DNA from: Candidatus Parcubacteria bacterium
GTDB lineage: Bacteria; Patescibacteriota; Minisyncoccia; UBA6257; 2-01-FULL-56-20
DNA: 64,000 bases
Reading direction: 5' to 3'
Assembly (NCBI GenBank): GCA_027324805.1
Contig: DAHVRZ010000001.1
Coordinates: forward strand, 2,945 to 66,944
A model generated the notes under the pieces. It was not told where the DNA came from and ran no database searches. It saw nothing but the letters and a program-made list of their open reading frames with translations. A program made the translations under genes and the position numbers. How positions within the stretch are numbered: the first letter of the stretch is position 1; the number at the start of each line of letters is the position of its first letter. This document shows positions 6,983 to 55,670 of the stretch, piece by piece.

Positions 6983-7066
6983 GCTGGGATGGCGGAACTG
7001 GCAGACGCACTGGCTTCAGGTGCCAGCGATCGCAAGATCATAGGAGTTCGACTCTCCTTCCCAGCA
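6983..7066 (+). tRNA. tRNA-Leu (anticodon CAG), class II with long variable arm
   Basis: Acceptor stem GCTGGGA/TCCCAGC (7 bp). Anticodon stem CTGGC/GCCAG with loop TTCAGGT. Variable arm GATC-GCAA-GATC. T-arm AGGAG TTCGACT CTCCT. Discriminator A. CCA not encoded. Confidence 0.85.
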
Positions 7067-7091
7067 CAAATCCACTGTTTTTATAAAATCA

Positions 7092-19888: not shown

Positions 19889-20962
19889 TTATTGCTTCTT
19901 CCTCACGATGCAGAACGGCGTCATCTCATCGGACTGGCCGAGTGGATTATCGCGGAAAAGCTTGCCGATGAACTCTTCGGAAATGGCGCGCGACGACTTG
20001 CCGAGCGAAAAAGCGCCGCGGTAGTTCGCGTCCAAAATCACCGCCTCACATCCGAGCGTTTTTTTAATCCGCTTCGCGCTGCCGTTCGAATCGTTCGGCG
20101 CGAGCTTCACGGAATGCGCGTATTCGAGGATGAGGAACGACATGGGGCAGTCCACCGACTTTGCGCGCTTGCCGCAGATGCGGTAGAACATGCCCTTGAT
20201 GCCGAATGGCCGCGTGACGGCCGACACTGCCGCAGCGAAGATGGCGCGCGGATATCCTGCTTCGCTTATAAAGGCTTCCATGGCAATCGATGTGCCGTGT
20301 CCGAAACCGCGAAACTGTTCCGTGCCATAGTAATTCCCTACGCGCCCTCCGAGGAAGCGTGCGAGCATTGAAGGCTTCACCATACTCATATCCACCACCC
20401 GGCCCTGCGTTATCGTGAGCGCTTTTTCGCTCACATAGAGGACGTCGCCCGGTTTCACATACGGCTTCACATATTCCTCGATGATCGGCAGGATATCCGT
20501 ATCCTTTGTTGTGATGACGCGCGTCTTCACCGGAAGGCGCTCATATACCACCCCGTCCACATCGATATCGATCTGCTTTCCCGGGTTCGGAGCGAAATCG
20601 CCGGAAGGCTTACGCTCCTTGAGCGCGACAGCGTCGTCTTCGAACGAAACTTTTTCTCCGCGGAACAATGCGAAAAGCTTTTCGGCCACACTCCAGATCA
20701 TTTCATGGCTTTGCCCGATCTTCGCGCGCGCCTTGAGTAGCTCCGTCGCCTCCATCCAGAGAATATGCGCCTCGTCGATCCTCGCGTGTGCGAACGATGC
20801 CTCTGCAACGATGGTCCCGGCCGCATCGTTCTTCCCGTTATCCGCAACCGCCCTCACTGCCGCACCGCCATCTTCGCGCGGCATATATACGATCGTAAGC
20901 CCCGTCCGCTCCTTCATATCCAAGTACGCCTGCGATTGCTCCGCTATTTTTGTGTGCGCCAT
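19889..20962 (-). CDS. CofE-like protein (F420-0:gamma-glutamyl ligase family fold) with about 135-aa N-terminal domain of unknown function
   Basis: Residues about 140-357 align to CofE: GDVLYVSEKALTITQGRVVDMSMVKPS versus CofE GDVIVIAETVVSKSEGRVVDL, and GSAKRIKKTLGCEAVILDANYRG versus CofE ESAKKIREEIKKLTGKDVAVIITDTQGR. No F420 genes nearby. Confidence 0.65.
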   Translation of the reverse strand: MAHTKIAEQSQAYLDMKERTGLTIVYMPREDGGAAVRAVADNGKNDAAGTIVAEASFAHARIDEAHILWMEATELLKARAKIGQSHEMIWSVAEKLFALFRGEKVSFEDDAVALKERKPSGDFAPNPGKQIDIDVDGVVYERLPVKTRVITTKDTDILPIIEEYVKPYVKPGDVLYVSEKALTITQGRVVDMSMVKPSMLARFLGGRVGNYYGTEQFRGFGHGTSIAMEAFISEAGYPRAIFAAAVSAVTRPFGIKGMFYRICGKRAKSVDCPMSFLILEYAHSVKLAPNDSNGSAKRIKKTLGCEAVILDANYRGAFSLGKSSRAISEEFIGKLFRDNPLGQSDEMTPFCIVRKKQ

Positions 20963-37579: not shown

Positions 37580-37589
37580 TCCGGGACTG

Positions 37590-37901
37590 TGGAGACGGGC
37601 GGAGTCGAACCGCCGTGTAATGATGGTGACGTGGGCCGTCTACGGGCGTAGTCTAAACGAGTTTAGGCAGAAATGGTCCTAGGTTCTCGCCCTGCGCATA
37701 GGGCCGTCTGCGCGAGGCCAGTCTCCTTGTATAAGACCGGTATCAGCTCAAGAGACCCGAACTGGCCGATCCCGAACTAGGCGAAAGCGAAGCTCGGAGC
37801 TGCAACTTTGGAGTTGGCAGTTATAGATTGTGCGGCGATTACGTCGCCGCCATCGGCCCGCAAACCCACGGAAGATCATTATCGAAGCCGGGTGCGTCCC
37901 C
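37590..37901 (-). ncRNA. ssrA: tmRNA (SsrA), standard one-piece form
   Basis: 5' GGGGACG pairs with 3' CGUCUCC-A, including the G3:U70 wobble (alanine identity). 3' tRNA-like T-arm GGCGG-UUCGACU-CCGCC. Internal tag reading frame GCC AAC UCC AAA GUU GCA GCU CCG AGC UUC GCU UUC GCC UAG gives (A)ANSKVAAPSFAFA*. 5' region GGGGACGCACCCGGCUUCGAUAAUGA resembles E. coli GGGGCUGAUUCUGGAUUCGAC. smpB present at 17474. Confidence 0.85.
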
Positions 37902-41793: not shown

Positions 41794-43554
41794 TCAATGC
41801 CCTTTCAACTTCTTGAGCATCGCCCCAAGCGGCCATGCATTCACAACATCGCTCCTGCACGCCCATCCACGGCGCGCCTGTGAGATGCCGTATTCAAGAT
41901 AGGCATAATGCGCAGTTGCGTGCGCGTCGGAATCTATTGAGAGACGGACGCCGGCCTCCACGCACTTGCGGATATATTCGTCCTTGAGGTCGGCCCGGTC
42001 CGGCAAGGCGTCTATCTCAAGCACCGTGCCGTTCTTTTTCGCCGCCGCTATGACCGCATCCATATCCACTTCGATAGGCGGGCGGCGATTGATGATGCGG
42101 TCGGTCGGATGGAAAAGAATGTCCACATGAGGATTCGCGATGGCGCGAAGCACGCGCTCTGTTTGTTCCTTTTTTGAAAGATTAAAGAACGAATGCACCG
42201 ATACGCCGACCACGTCGAGCTTTGCGAGTATCTCATCGGGCAGGTCGAGCGATCCGTCCTTCAGGATGTCGCACTCCGTTCCTTTTAATATTTTTATCTT
42301 TCCGCCAAGTTTTCTGTTTACCGCATCAATCTCCTTCCATTGCTCTTTGATGCGCACTTCGTCGAGCCCATGCGTCATAGCGAGCCGCTTCGTATGGTCC
42401 GTTATCGCGATATATTTCAGCCCGCGGGCCATCGCGGCGCGGGCCATCGCTTCGATGGAATCCGCCCCATCGGTCCAATTCGTCTGCACCTGAAGATCGC
42501 CCACGAGGTCGCTATAGCCGATGATCTTCGGCAGTTTATGCGCGAGCGCCGCCTGCACCTCTCCCGTATTCTCCCGCAGTTCCGGCTCGGGCCAATCCAT
42601 ACCCAGTATTTTGTATATTTCCTTTTCGTCGGCACCGGCCACACTCTTCCCTTTCACGCCATCCTTTATTCTGAAAAGGCCGTACTCATTGAGCGTGAAT
42701 CCCTTTTTGATCGCAAGCTGGCGGATTGCAACATTGTGATCCTTCGAACCGGTGAAATAATTGAGCGCCGCACCATAGGACTCCTTCGGCACCACCCGCA
42801 GATCAACGTTGATCCCCGGCCTTATTTTTATCGATGACTTCGTTTCTCCGTGCGCAATCACGCTCATCACACCCGGCATGGAAACAAACTTTTCCATGAT
42901 GGCTTTTGGGTTTGAAGAGGCGGCGAGAATATCTATATCGCCGACCGTCTCTTTCCGCCTGCGGGCCGAACCCGCCACAACCACCTTCTCCGCGCCCGGC
43001 ACAGAGGAAAGCGCCGCTTCAATCTCCCGTATTCGAGTCATCAGGGAACCCAGAACGAACCGCTGTCCGCTCCCCTTTGCAAACTCGATGCCTTTCAATA
43101 TCTTTTCCTCGCTTTTCTTCCCAAACCCCGGAAGCGTTGCTATCTTCCCTTCTTTCGCCGCTTTTTCAAGCTCCTTAAGATTCCTTATTCCAAGCTCTTT
43201 GTAAAGCCTCTGCACCGACTTCGGACCCATCCCCTCCACGCGGGCAAGCTCGTCGAGCCGCACCGGCGTCGCCTTTTTCAACTGTTCGTATTCCTTTACC
43301 TTCCCCGTATCCAAAAACTCGGCGATCTTTTCGGCGATACCCTGCCCGATACCGGGGATCTCCATGAGCGCTTTTTTGCCGCCCGCCGCGAACCTTTCCG
43401 CCATACTTTCCTCGAGTCCTTCCACCGTCATCGCCGCTTTTTCGTACGCGCGGGGTTTGAAAGGAACCTGCTGCATGGCAAGGTATTCCCCGATCTGACG
43501 GAGGATTTCCGCTATATCATGATTTGCGGGATATGCCCGTCGCGATGAGGCCAT
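41794..43554 (-). CDS. polX: DNA polymerase X family protein with C-terminal PHP (phosphoesterase) domain
   Basis: 586 aa. HhH motifs, Pol-beta nucleotidyltransferase signature GSARRRKETVGDIDIL, and a C-terminal PHP domain with His/Asp-rich motifs. Confidence 0.9.
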   Translation of the reverse strand: MASSRRAYPANHDIAEILRQIGEYLAMQQVPFKPRAYEKAAMTVEGLEESMAERFAAGGKKALMEIPGIGQGIAEKIAEFLDTGKVKEYEQLKKATPVRLDELARVEGMGPKSVQRLYKELGIRNLKELEKAAKEGKIATLPGFGKKSEEKILKGIEFAKGSGQRFVLGSLMTRIREIEAALSSVPGAEKVVVAGSARRRKETVGDIDILAASSNPKAIMEKFVSMPGVMSVIAHGETKSSIKIRPGINVDLRVVPKESYGAALNYFTGSKDHNVAIRQLAIKKGFTLNEYGLFRIKDGVKGKSVAGADEKEIYKILGMDWPEPELRENTGEVQAALAHKLPKIIGYSDLVGDLQVQTNWTDGADSIEAMARAAMARGLKYIAITDHTKRLAMTHGLDEVRIKEQWKEIDAVNRKLGGKIKILKGTECDILKDGSLDLPDEILAKLDVVGVSVHSFFNLSKKEQTERVLRAIANPHVDILFHPTDRIINRRPPIEVDMDAVIAAAKKNGTVLEIDALPDRADLKDEYIRKCVEAGVRLSIDSDAHATAHYAYLEYGISQARRGWACRSDVVNAWPLGAMLKKLKGH

Positions 43555-44883: not shown

Positions 44884-47361
44884 TTATTCCGCAACAAAAT
44901 CAAACGTATCATTCTGATATATGAGCTTTACCCTGTTCCCTTTGAGTACCTTCCTCCCAAGGATCGCCTGCGAGAGCGGCGCACGGACCTTCTCGTCGAT
45001 CACGCGGCGGAGCGGGCGGGCACCGTATGCCGGATCATAGCCGAGCTTCGCGATCTCCTTGAGCGCCTCCGGCGCGAAATCGAGATAGATACCCTTCTCC
45101 TTCATTATGGAAACCAGCTCTTGCACATTCAACTGCACGATCTTCATAAGATCATCCGGATCGAGGTTTTTGAAAATAATGATCTTCGAAAAACGATTGA
45201 GGAGCTCCGGTTTATATACATCCGTGAGGCGCGCCTTCACATACTCGGCGATCTGAGACATGGTCTCTCCCTGGCCAAGCGCCTGGTTGATGATATCGGA
45301 ATGCGCATTTGAGGTTGCGATGATGATCGTATTCGTAAAATCCACGACACGGCTCAGATTGTCGGTGAGCCGGCCGTCATCGAGGACCTGGAGGAAAAGA
45401 TTGAGGATATCGGGATATGCTTTCTCGAATTCATCGAGCAGGATAAGGCTGTAGGGCTTCGAGAGGACGGCATCGGTAAGTGCGCCGCGTACCGAACCGT
45501 CAGGCGAGCCGATGAAGCGGTAGAAGCTGGTCTTATCCTGGTATTCCGTCATATCGAAACGAACCATCATCTTCTCCGATCCGAACTGGATCTCGGCAAG
45601 TATCTTTGCGAGTTCGGTCTTGCCGACGCCGGTCGGCCCCACAAAGAGGAAACTCGCGATGGGACCGCCTTTACGCGTAAGGCCGGAGCGATATTCGCGG
45701 ATGGCATCCGCCACCGCCTTCACCGCCTCTTCCTGATCCACAAGCTTCCGGTGAATAAGATCCTCCATGTGAAGCAATTTCTCCGCTTCATCGCCTTCGG
45801 CCTCATGCATCGGGACGTTCACCCTTTCCTCGGCGACCGTGGTCACCCGTTCCGGACCGAGCCTTTTCTCACCGCGCCGTTCCGCGTCTACGAGTGCACT
45901 CTTCAAAAGCTCTTCCGCGCTCGAAGGGAGGAATTTATCATGCATATACTTCTTGGCGAGCATCACGGCGCGTTTGATCGCACCAAAACTTATTTCGATA
46001 TCCGATTCATCCTCGAGAAGTACGCTTTCATACGTGAGCACACGCTCCGCCTCCTCTTCCGTAATCTCGGCCACCGGAATCGTTTCAAAAATGGCAACGA
46101 AGTCGCTTCGCGGTTCGATGAGCTGTTTGAACTCGCGCGGATAGGTCGAGCCGACGACGGGAAACCGATTTTCCATAATAATGGGCATCAGGGCGTCGGC
46201 GGCGGAAAGATATGCGGTTCCCGAAGTGCGTACCAGATTATGGAGATCGGGGATATAAAGAATGACATTGCCCGCCTCGAGTATCTCTTCCACGATCATT
46301 TTGAGCCGCGCTTCAAGTTCCTCGGGTGCCGCGCCGGCAACGAGACTCGACAAATGGAGTCCCACCAGCCGTCGGTCAAAGAGCCCGCTCGGCACGTTAT
46401 CCTTTACAAGCGCGAGCGCGAGGTGATGTATGATCGATTCCTTGCCGATACCCGGCTCGCCGATGAGGATCGCATTGGGATTGACGGGCCTCGCGAGTGT
46501 CTCGATGAGCCTCCCGTATTCCGCGCCGTGGCCGATGAGGAATCCTGTTTGCCCGTTGCGGGCAAGGTCGGTATAATCGGTGCCATAATGGTCGAGCGTC
46601 GGCGTCGGACGCGCGGTCCATGCACGGTTCATTACACGATGCTTCGCCACGCGATGTGTGCCGATGCCAAAACCGCCGAGGGCACGCGGCAGTCGATGGA
46701 ACCACCCGTGACTCACGAGCGATCCAAAAAGGAGTGCGCGTTCCAGGTCACCCGGTTCGATCGAGAACTGATTGAAGAGACGATCCATCGCATCGCCTCC
46801 CGCCTTCGGAAGGGCCGAGAAAAGGTCCGGCGCAGTGATGAATTCGTGACCCGCCTTCACCGCTTGGGCGAATGCCGCCGTAAGGAGCGCTTCGATCGTC
46901 CGGATGGTCTCCTCCCTCGATGCCTTACCGGCAGGTCGATCCGGTGCATCCGACTCATTGAACAATGCGTCGAGCTTCGTCTTGAAATCCTCCGGCTTCA
47001 CATCGAGACGTCGCAGGCCTTCCGCGATTACCGGCGACTCAAAGAGTCGCCGCGCAAGTTCAAGGGAAAAATCCTTCTTTGTGATGCTGCTGCGGTCAAG
47101 CGCACGATCAATAGCCCCGAACGCCGCAGGCGATGTCACGCGGGAGAGATTCACCCTCCCGTCGCCGAACGATATCTCCGATATCGGCATATCCCCTTGA
47201 CCACGATGGACGACCAGGTCACCCGAGAAAAGAAGAAGGAACAGCCCGATCCACACCAAAAAGTGAATGCCCGAAAAAAGGAATGCGAACATCGCCGCCA
47301 CGAGGACAACGCCGACGATCCAGCTTGCCACGCGGACAATCATACGGCCCCCGACCGTCAT
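44884..47361 (-). CDS. Membrane-anchored Hsp100/Clp-family AAA+ ATPase (ClpC/ClpB-like) with degenerate first nucleotide-binding domain
   Basis: Two N-terminal TM helices then Clp_N-like repeats. D1 Walker A GEPGIGKES and Walker B ILYIPDLH are degenerate. D2 Walker A GPTGVGKT and Walker B LILLDEFEKA are intact. No IGF/IGL ClpP loop and no long M-domain. The track ORF extends to 47418, overlapping the upstream gene. Confidence 0.85.
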   Translation of the reverse strand: MTVGGRMIVRVASWIVGVVLVAAMFAFLFSGIHFLVWIGLFLLLFSGDLVVHRGQGDMPISEISFGDGRVNLSRVTSPAAFGAIDRALDRSSITKKDFSLELARRLFESPVIAEGLRRLDVKPEDFKTKLDALFNESDAPDRPAGKASREETIRTIEALLTAAFAQAVKAGHEFITAPDLFSALPKAGGDAMDRLFNQFSIEPGDLERALLFGSLVSHGWFHRLPRALGGFGIGTHRVAKHRVMNRAWTARPTPTLDHYGTDYTDLARNGQTGFLIGHGAEYGRLIETLARPVNPNAILIGEPGIGKESIIHHLALALVKDNVPSGLFDRRLVGLHLSSLVAGAAPEELEARLKMIVEEILEAGNVILYIPDLHNLVRTSGTAYLSAADALMPIIMENRFPVVGSTYPREFKQLIEPRSDFVAIFETIPVAEITEEEAERVLTYESVLLEDESDIEISFGAIKRAVMLAKKYMHDKFLPSSAEELLKSALVDAERRGEKRLGPERVTTVAEERVNVPMHEAEGDEAEKLLHMEDLIHRKLVDQEEAVKAVADAIREYRSGLTRKGGPIASFLFVGPTGVGKTELAKILAEIQFGSEKMMVRFDMTEYQDKTSFYRFIGSPDGSVRGALTDAVLSKPYSLILLDEFEKAYPDILNLFLQVLDDGRLTDNLSRVVDFTNTIIIATSNAHSDIINQALGQGETMSQIAEYVKARLTDVYKPELLNRFSKIIIFKNLDPDDLMKIVQLNVQELVSIMKEKGIYLDFAPEALKEIAKLGYDPAYGARPLRRVIDEKVRAPLSQAILGRKVLKGNRVKLIYQNDTFDFVAE

Positions 47362-47398
47362 CCGCAGACGCGGATCGTCGAGATAGAGCGAGGAAGGA

Positions 47399-47773
47399 TC
47401 AAAAGGTCTTTGCCGCATAATAAAGGGTTATAAAGGGGATTATGAGCCAAATCGCATATATAAAAAGAAAACAGACGGCAATCACGAGATAGGCGAACAA
47501 CCCGACAATAATGCGGCCTGTCCGGAAGATAAAACCCAGAATGCGTCCTACAAATGTGTAGTCCTTATAGAGTGGTTCAAAGAGGTGCCGAAGCGTCACC
47601 CGGAGCGCAAGCGACCGGTCGGCCGAAGCGATTGCCGCCATAAACCTCCTCCCGAATGCACGGGAGCCGTCGATATACCAATGATGGAAAAACTCGAATA
47701 TCCGGTAGAAAAAGCGTCCCGCGAGGTACGTCACACTGAAATCCATATCATAATCATAAATCCCAAGCTCCAA
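47399..47773 (-). CDS. Possible membrane protein upstream of the Clp ATPase (low confidence; TTG or internal ATG start)
   Basis: 124-aa ORF with two C-terminal hydrophobic helices. Overlaps the clp-like start region. Confidence 0.3.
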   Translation of the reverse strand: MELGIYDYDMDFSVTYLAGRFFYRIFEFFHHWYIDGSRAFGRRFMAAIASADRSLALRVTLRHLFEPLYKDYTFVGRILGFIFRTGRIIVGLFAYLVIAVCFLFIYAIWLIIPFITLYYAAKTF

Positions 47774-48430
47774 TTAGAACAGGCTCCCCTGCCGGATATC
47801 GCGGGCGCTGCCATTCTCCGTTTTTTCGAACGGCGCCGCAGTGACTTTTGATTCCACGGCCGGAGGCAGCTCGGTCGCCAGCTTCCCCGCAAGCACTGCG
47901 GGTATCTTTTTGAAATCTTCGCGAAGCACCTTCATCATTTCCGTTGAGCGAAGCGCCGCCGCAGGGTGATATACCGGAAACACGATACGACCATCGATCC
48001 GGAGCGGCCGTCCATGATCGCGCGTCATCTTGGCCGTCGGTACGAAATAGTTCATGGCAAAGCGCCCGAGAGTCACAATAAGTCCCGGCGCGATAATGGC
48101 GATCTGACGCGTAAGATAGGGTTGGTATGCTTCGATCTCCGCAGGGGACGGATCGCGATTCTCGGGCGGCCGGCGCTTCACAATATTCGTTATATACACA
48201 TCCTCGCGCTTCCATCCGAGTCCGCGGATCATGTCGTCGAGCAGCTGTCCGCCGCGTCCGACGAACGGACGCTTGAGCCGATCTTCGTTCGCCCCGGGCG
48301 CTTCGCCGATGAACATCACCGCACAGCTCACACTCCCTTCGCCGAATACGAGATTTGCCGGCCCTAAAGGAAGCGATGTGTCGCCGGCCATCTCTTCCTC
48401 AAGCGCCCCAAGCTCCGCAGCTTTATCCAT
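47774..48430 (-). CDS. udg: Uracil-DNA glycosylase, family 4
   Basis: GEAPGANEDRLKRPFVGRGGQLL family-4 UDG motif. Start at MDKAAELG with TATAAT 6 nt upstream (leaderless). Confidence 0.88.
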   Translation of the reverse strand: MDKAAELGALEEEMAGDTSLPLGPANLVFGEGSVSCAVMFIGEAPGANEDRLKRPFVGRGGQLLDDMIRGLGWKREDVYITNIVKRRPPENRDPSPAEIEAYQPYLTRQIAIIAPGLIVTLGRFAMNYFVPTAKMTRDHGRPLRIDGRIVFPVYHPAAALRSTEMMKVLREDFKKIPAVLAGKLATELPPAVESKVTAAPFEKTENGSARDIRQGSLF

Positions 48431-48473
48431 TCTTCTATTATAAGGAATCGTACCCCGCTTCAAAAGCGATCGG

Positions 48474-49145
48474 CTATTTGAATGCAGGCCGCCTGATCAC
48501 CTCTATCACCTTTCCATTCACAAAAAAGTCATCGTCCGCGCCCACATAGATCGGCGCAAAATCCTCCGTCGAATCGGATACAAGAACGATCTGATTGTGT
48601 GCGGCGTCTTTATGAAACCGCTTCACGTTGGCGGCTCCGTCGATCACCGACAAGACCACGTCACCGTCGTGCGGCGTACGATCGTCAGCATCCACTATGA
48701 GATAATCGCCGTTATTGATCGCCTCCCCGTGGACTTTCGCCTGGTTCATTGAAAAGCCGTCCGCGCGCACCGCGAAAAGTCCTTTATTATTCTGCCTGTG
48801 CACCAGCGAATTCGATACGCGGAGATATCCCGCCACATTTTCTTCGGCCAAAACCTCCGCCGGACCGCAGTTCGCCACGCCGACGATGGGAATCTGAAGA
48901 AGACGTTTCCCATTTTCCAAAAAGCCGCCTATCCAGCCCTCCTTCGGCTTTTCTATCGTGCCATTGACGCGATCGATCTTCAGGAGGCCCCTTTTTTCGA
49001 GCTGCTGGAGATGATGTTTTATCTTCTGCGCCGATCGGTCCCCCACAAGCTCTCCTATTTCCCGTAAAGAAAGGCTGGAAATATTGCGATTTTTTGCGAG
49101 GCGCAGGAGTTTTTCCTGTATGGGATGGAGTTTTTGGGTTTCCAT
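48474..49145 (-). CDS. lexA: LexA repressor (SOS regulator, S24 peptidase)
   Basis: N-terminal winged HTH. C-terminal S24 domain with the catalytic Ser motif (ADGFSM) and Lys (VKRF). Predicted Ala-Gly cleavage site (VANCGPAE). Confidence 0.9.
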   Translation of the reverse strand: METQKLHPIQEKLLRLAKNRNISSLSLREIGELVGDRSAQKIKHHLQQLEKRGLLKIDRVNGTIEKPKEGWIGGFLENGKRLLQIPIVGVANCGPAEVLAEENVAGYLRVSNSLVHRQNNKGLFAVRADGFSMNQAKVHGEAINNGDYLIVDADDRTPHDGDVVLSVIDGAANVKRFHKDAAHNQIVLVSDSTEDFAPIYVGADDDFFVNGKVIEVIRRPAFK

Positions 49146-49182
49146 GATTTTGTGGGTTTTTAGTCCTTGCTTCGATTATACC

Positions 49183-49195
49183 ATAGCCTATGGGA
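49183..49195. promoter_or_regulatory. Candidate LexA operator: perfect palindrome CCATAG-C-CTATGG abutting the lexA -10
   Basis: The 13-nt palindrome lies directly upstream of the lexA -10 on the lexA strand (plus-strand attata at 49176..49181). A second inverted repeat TGTCAA-N6-TTGACA sits at 49201..49218. Confidence 0.45.
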
Positions 49196-49212
49196 CATCT
49201 GTCAATAGTTCT

Positions 49213-49248
49213 TGACACTTGACAATCCCCAGTGACCCGAGTAGGATG
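49213..49248 (+). promoter_or_regulatory. Divergent sigma-70-type promoter (TTGACA x2 - 17 nt - TAGGAT) reading away from lexA
   Basis: TTGACACTTGACAA then 17 nt then TAGGAT. Overlaps the inverted repeats shared with the lexA promoter region. Confidence 0.45.
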
Positions 49249-49459
49249 GAGTGGTAAAGATCACTTCGGGCAATTCCTCGCGAACCATAAAGGTCGTTCA
49301 ACCACCAACCTCATACCCTCCCACTATCACCATGAAGACCATTCGTATGGGCAATAACTTCATAACCTTCTGGTCATTCAAGAAAACAGACCCACAGCCC
49401 GCGCGCGGCTTCAGGTTCTTCTTCCTCTAGGACGGACTATGTCTTCATTTTTACGATAA

Positions 49460-49490
49460 ATACCGTCGGCCGTCCGACGGTATTTTCTTT
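49460..49490 (+). terminator. Rho-independent terminator closing the about 210-nt transcript from the 49213 promoter
   Basis: ATACCGTCGG-CCGT-CCGACGGTAT (10-bp perfect stem) followed by TTTCTTTGTCC. Confidence 0.6.
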
Positions 49491-49576
49491 GTCCTTGTTT
49501 TTTATCAATATAAATGTTATAATATTTCCAGAACTTCCTACCCTTTCTTTCCATAAAAAGACCACGAGGAGATAGT

Positions 49577-49942
49577 ATGCACCCATTTCCCGCCTTTCGG
49601 CGCACGTTCACCGCATGGAGACATCGCATTGCCCGCCTGCCCCGATCCCTCTCCGTAAGGTTCGAATGGGAGCTTTGTTACGGGGCATGGTCGCCCGGAC
49701 CCGGCGGACGGCGCAAACTATTCACTCACATCCTCCGCCATAGCCTTCGGGATCTCGCTCTCATGTGCGCGATCTCCGATGGATCGCTCCGCGAGGAAGC
49801 GCTCCGCATCTATCATCGCGAGATAGCTTTCTTTCGGAAAGCCCATCTGCCGTTCAAGCGGCGCTGGGAGGACCCAAGGGCATTCCTTCGGGCCATAGGA
49901 TACGACCCTCGCTCCGGAAAGCCGTTTACAGCGCACCGCTGA
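49577..49942 (+). CDS. Hypothetical Arg-rich protein (121 aa)
   Basis: SD GGAGA 4 nt upstream of the ATG. Extended -10 TGTTATAAT promoter about 45 nt upstream. Confidence 0.45.
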   Translation: MHPFPAFRRTFTAWRHRIARLPRSLSVRFEWELCYGAWSPGPGGRRKLFTHILRHSLRDLALMCAISDGSLREEALRIYHREIAFFRKAHLPFKRRWEDPRAFLRAIGYDPRSGKPFTAHR

Positions 49943-50018
49943 TCGATTCTCCCGCGAGCACATTACCATCCGCCCCCGCGTTACCGCCGGGGCAATTTTT
50001 ATCCTTTTTTGGAGAGTA

Positions 50019-50046
50019 TTGACAAAATACGTATAAAATGTATAAT
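50019..50046 (+). promoter_or_regulatory. Consensus sigma-70 promoter upstream of the 50109 ORF
   Basis: TTGACA - 16 nt - TATAAT. Followed by palindromes AGATCGTTTAGATCT (about 50054..50068) and GGCCTTAAAGGCC (50077..50089) in the 5' UTR. Confidence 0.65.
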
Positions 50047-50108
50047 TATACTTAGATCGTTTAGATCTCATTTCAAGGCCTTAAAGGCCAGAAAGCGAGG
50101 GCCGCTCA

Positions 50109-50831
50109 ATGCAGCCCATTTTCCAAGCATGCAAGGCAGGAGTACAAGACGGCCGCGCTCGTTGCCGCAACGAGCAGGGCAAATGCTCAATTCACCACAG
50201 TATGAATTGGGCGCGGGCACCCCGCCCCGACGTTGTCCTTTTGAAGGTCAACGTCAACGAGAAGCGCGAACGCCGCCTCTCCGCAGCCGGCGTTCCGTAC
50301 CAGTCCCGTTCGTATGATCGGGCCTTACAGCTCGAACAGCAACGGGTGGCGAGTGCCCAATCCTTGGGGCGCAATGCGTATGCGGTGCGGGAACTCTCGC
50401 ATCGTGATTCACATCACACGCCCGAAGCCGCCGATACCGGCTGCCCAGTATTCGGCAAGAGCGGGCTCGCCGAGATGAACGTCGAGGCAGTAACCCTTGT
50501 GTGTGAACTCTTCAATGCGGGTTTCGTCCTCACCGGCGGACACCTTCTGAAAAGGGAGCACAAGCCGCCCGTACGGCTGGTGCTGGAATTCAGCAAGTCG
50601 TCCGCAAAACCGGAAGTTGGAAAATTTCCGTGGGGGGAGGTCGATTCGCTCCTTGCAACCACCTTCAACCAGGTGGATGTGTGGGCAAACGAACGCAGCG
50701 GCGATGGCAAGGTAGTTCACACCGTGAACTGCGGGAAACGCGATGACAACACCAAGCCCAAGACCCGTCTTCATTACGCCGACGGCGACTGGGATATTGA
50801 AGAGTTGCTCCCCGCGACCTCCGCGGTATAG
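50109..50831 (+). CDS. Hypothetical protein (240 aa; start may be internal)
   Basis: Long ORF downstream of a consensus promoter. Weak SD (GCGAGGG). No recognisable domain. Confidence 0.5.
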   Translation: MQPIFQACKAGVQDGRARCRNEQGKCSIHHSMNWARAPRPDVVLLKVNVNEKRERRLSAAGVPYQSRSYDRALQLEQQRVASAQSLGRNAYAVRELSHRDSHHTPEAADTGCPVFGKSGLAEMNVEAVTLVCELFNAGFVLTGGHLLKREHKPPVRLVLEFSKSSAKPEVGKFPWGEVDSLLATTFNQVDVWANERSGDGKVVHTVNCGKRDDNTKPKTRLHYADGDWDIEELLPATSAV

Positions 50832-50924: not shown

Positions 50925-52364
50925 TTATTCGGCCCCCTCTCCTGCTTCTCTATCCGCCTCGCGACGATCGAGCACCGTTTTGAACCGCTCAAGCACCCCC
51001 GTAAGCGAACCCGTGCCGAGCATCTCCTTCACATCCACATTTTCGGTCGAAATGCCGGGGACCACGGGCAGGCCCGACGCCAACGAAAAGAGATTCATAA
51101 GGAAGCTGGTGGCATACGACCCCTTCGGCAAAAAGAATGATATCGCGCCCACGCGGCCTTCGAACGAAGCTTTGCCCATTGCTATCTTCTGCAATGTGGC
51201 GCAGCGCCGCGATTCCACGCGCACGAACGGAAAATCCTTCCATGAGCGCGTCGGGAGCACTACGCCGTCCTCTTCGAGAAATTCGGCGTAGGGCTTCCAA
51301 TCCGCCGGATTGAATGAGGTAAGGAATGACAGAGAAAGCGGCACTTCGCCGGATCCTATCAATGCCGAAAGTTTTTTATTGAACAGAAAACTATCATATG
51401 CATAGAACCATAGACGCACCTGGTCCTGCACTTCATGCAGCGCACCAAGGAAATCATCCGGCTTATCGATAAGATGCGCGACGAAGGACCTCTCAATGCC
51501 GAAGTGATACGGGAACCTGTCCACTATTTCCCAGATGCTTTTCCAATCACCCCATTTCTTTTCGATATCCCCGCGCAGCGCCGCAAAATACGGAAGTTCC
51601 CTTTCCGAACGGTGCGTCAGGAACATCTTTATAACCTCTTCGTATTTCCCCTGCACAAGCAACCGGCCGAGAATGTGCGATATGAGCCGCGGGGTTCCGA
51701 AGCGTTGAAGGTAGAAAAAATTCCAAAATCCTTCTTCTTTTGCTATCGCAACCTGCTCGTTCAGAAAATCTTTCACCGCCGCGCCGGGCGGCTCCGCGAA
51801 CCGAAGCGCGATCGTGAACTCGTTCCCCTTAAGATCGCCGTTCGCCACCACTCCCTTGCCGCGCCTCACCCCGTTCAGGAAAAAATTCTCCCGGTCGAGA
51901 CGGGAAAATGCGCCGGGATCCGCGAGGCCGCGGACACTGATCGCCTGCGAGGTGAGCGCGACACGATCTTTGACGCCGGCGAAGCCGATATTCTTTTCGT
52001 CGATCCCAAGCGCGTGCGCAAGCTCCGCCTTTGCCTCGAGCGTGGATATGCCCACCTTCACGAGATCCGCGTAATACGTGGCGCCGTCACCCTCCTGCAC
52101 CGACCCGCCCCCGGCGACATCTTCCAGACGCGCCTCATGAAGATTCCCTTCACGGTCGATCTCCTCCACCACGAAATCCTGCGGCATCAGTTTCAAATAC
52201 GCGACCGGTCTCCCCTGCGGAAGACCTTCGATGCCGACCGAGCGGAGGACCGCATCGTCATCCACCATGGGGGTCCGGATGAAATCCTTCGGAACGCGCA
52301 TACGCTCCGCTTCGAACAACATTCTTTCGCGGTCGCGGTCTTCTTGGGTGATCTGCATCGCCAT
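50925..52364 (-). CDS. truD: tRNA pseudouridine synthase TruD/Pus7 family
   Basis: 479 aa. IGFAGVKDRVALTSQ matches the TruD catalytic-Asp motif GxKDxxAxTxQ. Confidence 0.8.
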   Translation of the reverse strand: MAMQITQEDRDRERMLFEAERMRVPKDFIRTPMVDDDAVLRSVGIEGLPQGRPVAYLKLMPQDFVVEEIDREGNLHEARLEDVAGGGSVQEGDGATYYADLVKVGISTLEAKAELAHALGIDEKNIGFAGVKDRVALTSQAISVRGLADPGAFSRLDRENFFLNGVRRGKGVVANGDLKGNEFTIALRFAEPPGAAVKDFLNEQVAIAKEEGFWNFFYLQRFGTPRLISHILGRLLVQGKYEEVIKMFLTHRSERELPYFAALRGDIEKKWGDWKSIWEIVDRFPYHFGIERSFVAHLIDKPDDFLGALHEVQDQVRLWFYAYDSFLFNKKLSALIGSGEVPLSLSFLTSFNPADWKPYAEFLEEDGVVLPTRSWKDFPFVRVESRRCATLQKIAMGKASFEGRVGAISFFLPKGSYATSFLMNLFSLASGLPVVPGISTENVDVKEMLGTGSLTGVLERFKTVLDRREADREAGEGAE

Positions 52365-52414: not shown

Positions 52415-52489
52415 TGGTGCTCCCGCGTGGAATCGAACCACGATCACCTCCTTCGGAGGGAGATATTCTATCCATTGAACTACGAGAGC
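52415..52489 (-). tRNA. tRNA-Arg (anticodon CCG), CCA encoded
   Basis: Acceptor GCUCUCG/CGGGAGC (one G:U). Anticodon stem UCUCC/GGAGG with loop CUCCGAA. T-arm CGUGG-UUCGAUU-CCACG. 3' ACCA present. Confidence 0.85.
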
Positions 52490-54323: not shown

Positions 54324-55670
54324 TCACAGTTCAACTGTTTCTCCCTGTTTCGGCACCTCCGCCGAGACGCCCAGGATTTCGGTTATTTTTCCGGCGAGAG
54401 CGATGCTCGACGGCCCTTCGCCCTGCACCACCCATGCCTTCTTGAGACCCTTCATGGCGCCCACCCACTCGACAAGATGCGGCTGGTCGGCATGCGCGGA
54501 GTAGCCGGGAATATTCACGCGGTGCGCACGCACGGGAATCGTCTCGCCGAAAATGCGCACCTCCTGCATGCCCTCGAGGATCTGCCGTCCCATCGATCCG
54601 GTCGCTTGATATCCCACAAAAACAATCGTACTTTTCGGATCGGGAAGGTAGCGCATTTCGTGATGAAGAATACGGCCGCCGTTCGACATGCCCGAACCCG
54701 CAATGATGATCTTCGGCGGCTTCACGCCGTTGATTTCCTTTGACTGCTCCGTTGTCAGCGTCAGTGTAAGGCCGGGAAAATTCAAAATATCATCGCCCGT
54801 TATCTTTTCTTCTTCTTTGATCGCATTATTGAAATAATCCTCGTGCTTTTTATATACCTCGGTCACCTTGATGGCGAGAGGGCTGTCTATGTAAACAGGA
54901 ACCCTCGGAATTTCGTTTTTTTCGAAAAGCTCATGAAGCACATAGAGCAGGTCCTGGGTGCGCTCCATCGCAAACGAGGGGATCATAAGCGTACCGCCGT
55001 CGTGCACGGTGTCCACAATCGTCTTCCGCAGGATCTCCACGCGCTTCGGCACGTCGTCGTGCACACGGTCTCCATAAGTCGATTCGACAAGGCAATAATC
55101 GGCGGCGGGAACGGTTTCCGTCGCTTTGATGATCGGCGCCGGCGAGTTGCCGAGATCACCGGAGAATACGATCATTTTGCCCTCGGCCTCAACATGAATG
55201 ATTGCGGAGCCGAGAATATGCCCTGCATCGTACAGTTCGACAGTGAACGGCCCTATTGTAACTTTTTCGTGATAACCAAGGCCGTGCCAGTGCCGCATCA
55301 CGTTCTCGATATCCTCATTGTTATAGAGCGGCGGCCTCCCTTCGCGCTTCGCTTCATCGTTGAGGAGATGCTCGGAATCGACCAGCATGAGCTCGGCAAA
55401 ATCCTGTGTGGCGGTGGTGGAGTAGATCACGCCTTTAAACCCCGATTTTACGAGCGTCGGCAGGCGGCCAATATGATCAAGGTGTGCGTGCGTCGTGAAG
55501 ACCGCCTCGACCGAACCCGCTTCATACGGGAGCGGCTCGAAGTTTTCGCGTTCGGCATAGTGGCTCCCTTGATGGAGGCCGCAATCGATCATAATCCTCG
55601 TCGCGCCGGATTCGAGAATATAGTTTGCTCCCGTCGCTTCACTGCAGCCGCCATAAAAAGTGAGCTTCAT
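54324..55670 (-). CDS. MBL-fold beta-CASP RNA-metabolising hydrolase (second RNase J/CPSF-like enzyme)
   Basis: 448 aa. HAHLDH metal motif and beta-CASP motifs (ESTYGD, ...YSAHAD). Confidence 0.85.
   Translation of the reverse strand: MKLTFYGGCSEATGANYILESGATRIMIDCGLHQGSHYAERENFEPLPYEAGSVEAVFTTHAHLDHIGRLPTLVKSGFKGVIYSTTATQDFAELMLVDSEHLLNDEAKREGRPPLYNNEDIENVMRHWHGLGYHEKVTIGPFTVELYDAGHILGSAIIHVEAEGKMIVFSGDLGNSPAPIIKATETVPAADYCLVESTYGDRVHDDVPKRVEILRKTIVDTVHDGGTLMIPSFAMERTQDLLYVLHELFEKNEIPRVPVYIDSPLAIKVTEVYKKHEDYFNNAIKEEEKITGDDILNFPGLTLTLTTEQSKEINGVKPPKIIIAGSGMSNGGRILHHEMRYLPDPKSTIVFVGYQATGSMGRQILEGMQEVRIFGETIPVRAHRVNIPGYSAHADQPHLVEWVGAMKGLKKAWVVQGEGPSSIALAGKITEILGVSAEVPKQGETVEL

Follow-up and report, generated by a model that had tools for sequence, protein, structure and literature searches.

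We describe a gene for an orphan micro-protein of 32 codons that lies back to back with a lexA-type repressor gene in a 64,000-nucleotide (nt) stretch of contig DAHVRZ010000001.1 from a Candidatus Parcubacteria bacterium. This stretch is called the window below, and all positions are counted within it. The open reading frame (ORF) at 49332..49430, the micro-ORF, is very probably translated. With some reserve, we favour reading the interval between the two genes as a bidirectional control region that serves the LexA-type repressor on one side and, on the other, a monocistronic micro-protein effector gene under LexA control, in a position like that of yneA and sosA. An initial annotation had proposed a lexA control region here, with a divergent transcript that it took for an SOS-regulated small RNA or micro-protein gene without a convincing ORF. 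Its outline of the control region stands, as Pfam identified both Peptidase_S24 and LexA_DNA_bind in the LexA-type gene and divergent promoters are present back to back.

The micro-protein reading is well supported by comparison with relatives. We found homologues of 30-33 amino acids (aa) in about 19 loci, all divergent from lexA wherever the upstream sequence suffices. They start with MK[TI][IV]R.GNNF[IV]TF[WL]SFK[KR], end with F.FFF[FL] and span 30-33 codons at every locus; residues M1, K2, R5, G7, N8, N9, F10, T12, F13, S15, F16, K17, F27 and F31 are invariant. Within the first 18 codons, variable columns number 5, 3 and 16 at codon positions 1, 2 and 3, respectively, and pairwise comparisons give 445 synonymous versus 227 non-synonymous codon differences. 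The frame is open from the same ATG to the stop at all loci, and the other five frames hold stops. The initial annotation had translated 49332..49430 exactly as we do, but its judgement that no ORF was convincing does not survive this conservation, in which changes fall mostly at third positions. An N-terminal extension to 59 aa from an in-frame GTG at 49251 was also considered and rejected, being interrupted in relatives.

The micro-ORF has no Shine-Dalgarno (SD) sequence, as had been observed before, but this loses its force as an objection to translation in a window where only 12 of 39 long ORFs have an SD-like motif. Because most genes here also lack one, its absence is no argument against translation of the micro-ORF. 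Many long ORFs carry a −10-like hexamer (TATACT, TATAAT, TAGAAT or CATAAT) 5-8 nt before the ATG and no SD; examples are the starts at 1503, 10275, 19889-20962(-), 23551, 34704, 41794-43554(-), 50925-52364(-) and 54324-55670(-). Leaderless mRNAs seem, from this arrangement, to be common in this genome.

Relatives were collected in several ways. Five close loci (81-90% identity) came from species genomes scanned with the LexA protein, and a further 11 from metagenomes scanned with the peptide alignment. The metagenome-assembled genomes JAJYDL01, DAIEHA01, JARLIC01 and CAYQFA01 carry the locus, as does a 224-kb NCBI contig; its source habitats include bog, peat and lake hypolimnion. The 32-aa protein has been called in identical form in an NCBI record, and Logan assemblies contain an 84% relative; a search of 5.8 billion proteins with the peptide returned the identical protein and the 84% relative only. 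Since hmmsearch of 1.84 billion representative proteins yielded a single true cluster, next to an unrelated repeat protein, the family is narrow. One locus, with a LexA 77% identical to that of the window, carries a diverged copy of the micro-ORF (MNIIKLGNNYVSFLSFKKQPHSRPFYFLFF); at all other micro-ORF loci the LexA proteins are 80-92% identical to it. Past the terminator of the micro-gene, the adjoining genes belong to at least five unrelated clusters, about half of them convergent. With the genes beyond the terminator this variable, the conserved unit is, judged from gene order, lexA plus the micro-gene, which counts against the micro-ORF being a mere leader.

We then have good confidence in the assignment of the promoter and terminator of the micro-gene. 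In a promoter scan, TTGACA-17-TAGGAT scored 10/12, with a predicted transcript start near 49253-49256 on the plus strand. The resulting transcript unit is about 235 nt long and begins with a 5' untranslated region (UTR) of about 78 nt that has no SD, so the short transcript bounded by promoter and terminator that the initial annotation drew on the strand opposite to lexA is borne out. Its terminator hairpin is also there, with a stem of 12 base pairs (bp) at 49458..49485 in place of the 10 bp at 49460..49490 originally given. The terminator follows the micro-ORF stop by 24-36 nt. A GC-rich hairpin with a T-tract occurs at the same place in all relatives but L025 (loci of relatives carry L numbers), which has no obvious terminator; the stem sequences differ.

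An ungapped alignment of 17 distinct intergenic sequences, anchored on the tandem box, reveals four near-invariant elements amid variable sequence. They are, in order, ATTATAnCA (TGnTATAAT on the lexA strand), T[TG]GAC-N4-GTCAA, CTTGACACTTGACA after 6 variable bases, and TAnnnT after a further 17 variable bases. The intergenic region is conserved in its control elements. In most relatives (L003, L004, L005, L012-L020) the ATG of lexA lies only 6 nt from the TATAAT box, which implies that their lexA mRNA is leaderless. In the window, L001, L002 and L008 the lexA leader is about 29-40 nt long, the gap in the window being 29 nt. The −35-like TTGACA of lexA stands 19 nt from its −10 and is the left arm of the inverted repeat TGTCAA-N6-TTGACA. 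In the box pair T[TG]GAC-N4-GTCAA, the GAC and the GTCAA are near-invariant in the clade whose LexA proteins are at least 80% identical, and the left half is not kept in loci with LexA 64-73% identical.

The tandem TTGACAcTTGACA is invariant in all but one of the 17 sequences (16/17). Its second TTGACA, a perfect hexamer, is the −35 of the micro-gene promoter. Its first TTGACA is without a −10 partner, so promoter function cannot account for it, and we regard it as a candidate operator half-site. The N6 spacing of TGTCAA-N6-TTGACA, which has a single match in the 64-kb window, is identical in every micro-ORF locus and is also found in L021, L022, L023, L025 and L026, where the divergent genes differ. 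More broadly, GTCAA-N6-CTTGACAnTTGACA-N17-TAnnnT stands beside LexA homologues of 64-77% identity, in the form GTCAA-N6-CTTGACA(c/g)TTGAC(a/g)-N17-TAnnnT. The divergent genes at these loci are unrelated: they encode a 99-aa GIY-YIG-like protein, a 323-aa protein with Multi_ubiq, a 48-aa ORF with ThiF/E2/JAB, a ParB_N-methylase and a 103-aa protein. Because it is kept beside unrelated divergent genes, the tandem box travels with the repressor and not with the target, as an operator would, and it appears to be the best operator candidate. The operator may be the inverted repeat at 49200..49217, the tandem repeat at 49212..49224, or both.

Both elements had been mentioned in passing by the initial annotation. 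The inverted repeat does exist, at 49200..49217, and so do the tandem TTGACA boxes and TAGGAT, with a small coordinate shift (49212..49217, 49219..49224 and 49242..49247). Being the conserved elements, they look like better operator candidates than the palindrome that was put forward there, CCATAG-C-CTATGG (CCATAGCCTATGG). That sequence is a perfect palindrome, at 49181..49193 and not at 49183..49195, and it overlaps the TG of the lexA extended −10. However, it lies in the variable stretch that separates the lexA −10 from the first box, and no relative has the same sequence there; no second copy within 1 mismatch was found in the window. Perfect inverted repeats with 6-bp arms and a 1-nt loop number 24 in the window versus about 15 in shuffled sequence. 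As CCATAGCCTATGG is no rarer than chance and not conserved in relatives, we rejected it as the LexA operator.

Known LexA operators include the Gram-positive palindrome GAAC-N4-GTTC and the alphaproteobacterial direct repeat GTTC-N7-GTTC (PMC8565304, PMC7739468). T[TG]GAC-N4-GTCAA shares the geometry of the Gram-positive LexA box, and TTGACAcTTGACA is a direct repeat, the type of motif that a passage of PMC7739468, citing Sanchez-Osuna et al. 2017, says is recognised by the LexA of Patescibacteria. The candidate operator differs from each of the motifs compared in its sequence, its 7-bp period and the double use of two boxes as −35 hexamers. Direct repeats are also found upstream of more distant LexA homologues, which fits that statement in PMC7739468: at 58-60% identity the direct repeats have a period of 9 bp, and at 38-48% identity TTTCAAAT occurs twice in direct orientation with a period of 11 bp, accompanied by TTGAAA as an inverted copy (L006 3700..3790, L007 3950..4010). 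The TTTCAAAT repeats are a different candidate operator in these more distant lineages.

The repressor itself has 223 aa. Its C-terminal S24 peptidase domain matches PF00717 (E 2.3e-16) and its N-terminal LexA DNA-binding domain matches PF01726 (E 1.6e-5; 25.0 bits versus a cut-off of 23.7) in Pfam. At the cleavage site, ANCG aligns with VAAG of E. coli LexA and gives Cys-Gly instead of Ala-Gly. Cys-Gly is the cleavage site used by UmuD. The catalytic residues are in place, as GFSM aligns with GMSM (Ser119) and VKRF with VKRL (Lys156) of E. coli LexA (7b5g). Close homologues are annotated as LexA by the Joint Genome Institute (JGI). Its score against the LexA equivalog, given below, makes the protein a divergent member of LexA or a LexA-like paralogue. 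Downstream of lexA, 44884..48463 (-) holds a uracil-DNA glycosylase (UDG) family gene, which is probably in one operon with lexA, a 124-aa orphan with hydrophobic stretches and a Clp/Hsp100-type AAA+ ATPase. The order lexA, UDG, a gene for 115-124 aa and the Clp-type AAA+ gene is kept in 12-13 loci, so all three genes may be co-transcribed with lexA. The features of the locus are collected in Table 1.

Table 1. Positions of the control elements, genes and transcript features at the lexA/micro-gene locus
Feature	Position	Strand	Remarks
Micro-protein gene, 32 codons: MKTIRMGNNFITFWSFKKTDPQPARGFRFFFL	49332..49430	+	Homologues and codon signature
lexA extended −10, TGGTATAAT	49175..49183	-	ATTATAnCA (lexA strand: TGnTATAAT) in 16/17 distinct intergenic sequences
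Box pair T[TG]GAC-N4-GTCAA, here GGGACATCTGTCAA	49192..49205		Right half is the TTGACA −35-like hexamer of lexA (- strand)
Inverted repeat TGTCAA-N6-TTGACA	49200..49217		Candidate LexA operator; spans the lexA −35 and abuts the micro-gene −35
Tandem TTGACAcTTGACA	49212..49224	+	TTGACA at 49212..49217 and 49219..49224; 7-bp repeat period
Micro-gene −10, TAGGAT	49242..49247	+	17 nt after the second TTGACA; TAnnnT kept at fixed distance
Conserved 5' UTR blocks	49269..49296	+	GGCAATTCCTCGCGAA (49269-84), AAAGGTCG (49289-96)
Six-codon mini-ORF, MSSFLR*	49439..49459	+	ATG at 49439, TAA ending at 49459; stop overlaps the first bases of the terminator stem
Intrinsic terminator	49458..49492	+	12-bp stem 49458..49485, 4-nt loop, tail TTTTCTTTG
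Palindrome CCATAGCCTATGG	49181..49193		Not conserved; a chance feature of this genome
lexA-type repressor gene, 223 aa	48474..49145	-	Winged-helix DNA-binding domain and S24 self-cleaving peptidase domain
UDG family gene	47774..48463	-	Pfam UDG, 1.2e-33; 10 nt downstream of lexA

By sequence and conservation, lexA is read leftward from its extended −10, and the micro-gene rightward from TTGACA-17-TAGGAT to end at the strong intrinsic terminator. We infer the regulation and the function of this arrangement as follows. LexA would bind the array of TTGAC boxes, at the inverted repeat 49200..49217 or the tandem 49212..49224, covering both −35 hexamers and shutting both promoters. DNA damage would lead to self-cleavage of LexA and turn both genes on. 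The peptide, cationic (net charge +4 to +5) and rich in Phe and Trp (8-9 among 30-32 residues), would then act as a short-lived SOS effector arresting growth or division. Control by LexA through the TTGAC array is, on the pattern of conservation, the likelier state of affairs. Growth or division arrest as the function of the peptide is read from its position only and is a tentative proposal.

Several results weigh against this reading. Concerning the peptide, a search for a transmembrane segment found none (best 15-residue Kyte-Doolittle window 0.03-0.51), and a transmembrane segment is present in all of YneA, SosA, ChiZ, DivS and SidA (PMC6851548). For 14 family members there was no Pfam match at E <= 10, the peptide had none in NCBIfam, a PDB profile search gave no match, and AlphaFold2 with a two-sequence alignment returned a low-confidence helix with a predicted local distance difference test (pLDDT) score of 61.6, a model that was not used. 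Concerning the regulator, the repressor scores 83.6 bits against TIGR00498, the NCBIfam LexA equivalog, below its cut-off of 110.95. Two of the four TTGAC boxes can be explained simply as −35 hexamers. Neither the 64-kb window nor 169 kb of relatives' sequence yielded credible further copies of the palindrome, the inverted repeat, the tandem box or a palindromic weight matrix; a single match inside an ORF in L012 is probably due to chance. No hallmark motifs of recA, uvrA or uvrB were found in the window. The LexA homologues in L021-L028 (58-77% identity) adjoin defence-type or variable genes: GIY-YIG-like, Multi_ubiq/ThiF/E2/JAB, ParB_N-methylase, DNA methylase, Eco57I restriction-modification, Patatin with a DncV-like nucleotidyltransferase, and SMODS with E2-CBASS. 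In L027 and L028, CBASS-like genes follow lexA on the same strand. With such neighbours, the repressor could be a local one and not the master regulator of an SOS response; they also suggest damage-sensing control of defence genes in bacteria of the Candidate Phyla Radiation (CPR). Finally, a micro-protein effector leaves the conserved 5' UTR blocks and the mini-ORF unaccounted for.

These two elements were followed through the relatives. The blocks have the consensus GGCAnTTCCTYGCGAA plus AAAGGTCG, 0-30 nt apart and 24-50 nt from the ATG, and the leader that runs from them to the start codon is CA-rich and poor in G. Even the diverged locus L025 retains AAAGGTCG. As this block stands anywhere from 24 to about 50 nt before the ATG, it was rejected as an SD sequence. 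The blocks showed no supporting covariation and have no complementary copy in the window. The mini-ORF recurs in 15 of 16 distinct relatives as an ATG placed 18 nt (15 nt in L020, an in-frame difference) before a stop codon in the same frame (TAA, TAG or TGA) at the base of the stem. It is absent in L013, and its peptide sequence (the five intervening codons) is not conserved. The mini-ORF begins 6-8 or 18-19 nt after the micro-ORF stop, in a relative frame that is not constant; on this layout, re-initiation at the mini-ORF is plausible and a fusion product is not. A ribosome that stops at the mini-ORF would mask the hairpin's 5' arm. Work in E. coli has shown near-complete repression of a terminator that follows a translated gene by a few bp (PMC4824070). 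Either translation-dependent read-through or the loss of a protective 3' hairpin could result. Stops of ordinary genes in this genome usually lie −2 to +7 nt from terminator stems (terminators 9526, 29833, 38327, 40042, 40612 and 59742). As a separate observation, several terminators in the window are flanked by an A-tract and a T-tract and could act both ways between convergent genes.

In Bacillus, Listeria, Staphylococcus, Mycobacterium and Corynebacterium, the gene divergent from lexA encodes an SOS division inhibitor, and the YneA, SosA, ChiZ and DivS families are mutually unrelated in sequence, position being their common trait (PMC6851548). Like the micro-gene, yneA (Bacillus, Listeria), sosA (Staphylococcus), chiZ/Rv2719c (Mycobacterium) and divS (Corynebacterium) are small, divergent from lexA and joined to it by a common control region. 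Their products have 70-170 aa, one transmembrane segment, an extracellular C-terminus and mostly a LysM domain, whereas the peptide here has 30-33 aa and none of these. As it is without membrane segment and LysM domain, its possible likeness to YneA-type inhibitors would be one of role only and not of family membership, and we propose even that with hesitation. To our knowledge, no equivalent of the lexA-divergent division inhibitors has been described in CPR bacteria. In size the micro-protein is comparable to SidA of Caulobacter, a very small LexA-controlled division inhibitor. SidA has about 29 aa and is not known to be encoded next to lexA. It is membrane-anchored (PMC6851548), whereas the peptide here is cationic and aromatic and has no hydrophobic helix. 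The micro-gene also recalls TisB and DinQ in encoding about 30 aa behind a long 5' UTR, in being monocistronic and in ending at a terminator. TisB/IstR-1 and DinQ/AgrB of E. coli comprise peptides of about 30 aa made from monocistronic, terminated transcripts with a LexA-type operator and a long 5' UTR without an accessible SD; these peptides are hydrophobic membrane helices, with an antisense RNA close by and a 5' UTR that is structured and processed. At the micro-gene locus we found no hydrophobic helix, no 5' UTR structure and no complementary RNA.

We weighed several other explanations. That the transcript is a non-coding SOS-regulated small RNA in which the ORF is incidental would agree with a unit of about 235 nt bounded by promoter and terminator, with the missing SD and with the conserved blocks in its 5' part, but it is very improbable in view of the coding signature and the ORF boundaries conserved in about 19 loci. 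Rfam, searched with the whole window at gathering thresholds and with 48900..50200 at E <= 10, returned only tmRNA (transfer-messenger RNA), tRNA and noise. Single-sequence folds of both strands had weak z-scores (−2.0 for the transcript, mostly from the terminator), and RNAalifold on 14 distinct transcripts gave −2.1 kcal/mol, with the terminator and a few invariant pairs only. The RNA-family search and the covariation analysis suggested with the initial annotation thus brought out nothing but the terminator, and of its two options the micro-protein holds and the small RNA is rejected. A dual-function RNA, both coding and regulatory, may nevertheless be considered. Rather unlikely, in our view, is a toxic peptide (a type I toxin or an abortive-infection-like one) that is induced by damage or phage, silenced by a LexA-like sensor and restrained by the 5' UTR blocks. 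Such a peptide would suit a small ORF with a perfect −35 hexamer and a long 5' UTR in which conserved blocks occur but no SD; TisB and DinQ are LexA-controlled peptides of similar size, and LexA homologues of this lineage adjoin CBASS-like, ubiquitin-like and restriction-modification genes. The peptide, however, is not hydrophobic enough for a membrane helix, as the Kyte-Doolittle values above indicate, and its amphipathicity is no greater than that of shuffled sequence, so that an amphipathic helix was not detected either. The 5' UTR has no conserved structure, its blocks lack a complementary copy in the window, and no conserved antisense promoter was seen by eye in the 3' UTRs, where no scan was run; the growth-arrest part of this proposal overlaps the effector reading.

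The locus might instead hold a leader peptide or attenuator, in which micro-ORF, mini-ORF and terminator sense translation and gate read-through from the LexA-linked promoter into the variable downstream genes. The pheL/pheM leaders, the rph-pyrE attenuator and the ampC start-stop leader are translation-coupled attenuators. The locus resembles them in a short ORF that has a run of Phe codons close to its end (F-x-F-F-F-[FL], then stop, then terminator, recalling pheL/pheM) and in the tiny, conserved ORF that stops at the foot of the terminator hairpin, where the repression of close terminators in E. coli would apply. About half of the loci have a co-directional next gene, and in LexA relatives this promoter leads straight into larger cargo genes. 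We nevertheless consider an attenuator rather improbable. The first 18 residues are near-invariant while their codons drift, unlike ordinary leader peptides, and the peptide sequence is under purifying selection; the consensus fold has no conserved antiterminator pairing; the downstream genes differ by locus, about half being convergent, and those in the window have promoter-like sites of their own. The stop-at-terminator geometry is usual in this genome and so not special alone. It is quite unlikely that the repressor is a local, cI-like one of a small mobile or variable module, with the TTGAC array as its private operators and the micro-gene outside the DNA-damage regulon. The score below the LexA equivalog cut-off, the lack of other operator copies in the sequence searched, the very varied cargo beside homologues and the resemblance of several operator-like boxes between divergent promoters to a phage immunity region all speak for it. 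On the other side stand the LexA_DNA_bind domain with the full catalytic dyad, the order lexA-UDG-small gene-Clp ATPase, stably chromosomal in 12-13 loci, the JGI annotation of close homologues and the lack of integrase or phage genes nearby; self-cleaving S24 repressors respond to RecA and DNA damage either way. A wider proposal, which we think unlikely, is that, in this Parcubacteria lineage, the LexA-type repressor has turned into a general sensor of DNA damage or phage attack whose tandem-TTGACA module drives interchangeable cargo (a GIY-YIG nuclease, ubiquitin-like or CBASS-like genes or, in the clade of the window, a cationic, aromatic orphan peptide of 30-33 aa that acts without a membrane anchor, unlike known SOS effectors), and that the re-initiating 6-codon ORF puts a ribosome on the terminator, causing translation-dependent read-through or self-limiting mRNA decay.

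Other features of the window were noted in passing. Downstream of the micro-gene, a perfect consensus promoter, TTGACA-16-TATAAT (12/12), at 50019..50046 precedes a 240-aa orphan (50109..50831) without a match in Pfam or NCBIfam, which recurs in 5 loci; the 121-aa ORF at 49577..49942 is an orphan too. The tmRNA gene at 37587..37901 (-), with the tag ANSKVAAPSFAFA, is ordinary, as are tRNA-Leu(CAG) at 6983..7067 and tRNA-Arg(CCG) at 52415..52489.

The finding is real and the orphan micro-protein gene is new, while the theme of a LexA-linked divergent small gene is already known; it is here extended to a new phylum and a new type of peptide, and current ideas are not overturned. It also provides a case in which a 32-codon ORF without an SD is validated by comparative genomics alone, in organisms that are often SD-less or leaderless. 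Members of the CPR have tiny genomes and a little-known DNA-damage response, and SOS is barely studied in the phylum. The conserved TTGAC array is a candidate operator for this LexA lineage, and the presence of defence genes beside LexA homologues is a hint of damage-induced immunity. As an orphan strictly linked to lexA, the micro-protein offers a concrete candidate for an SOS checkpoint or effector in CPR bacteria.

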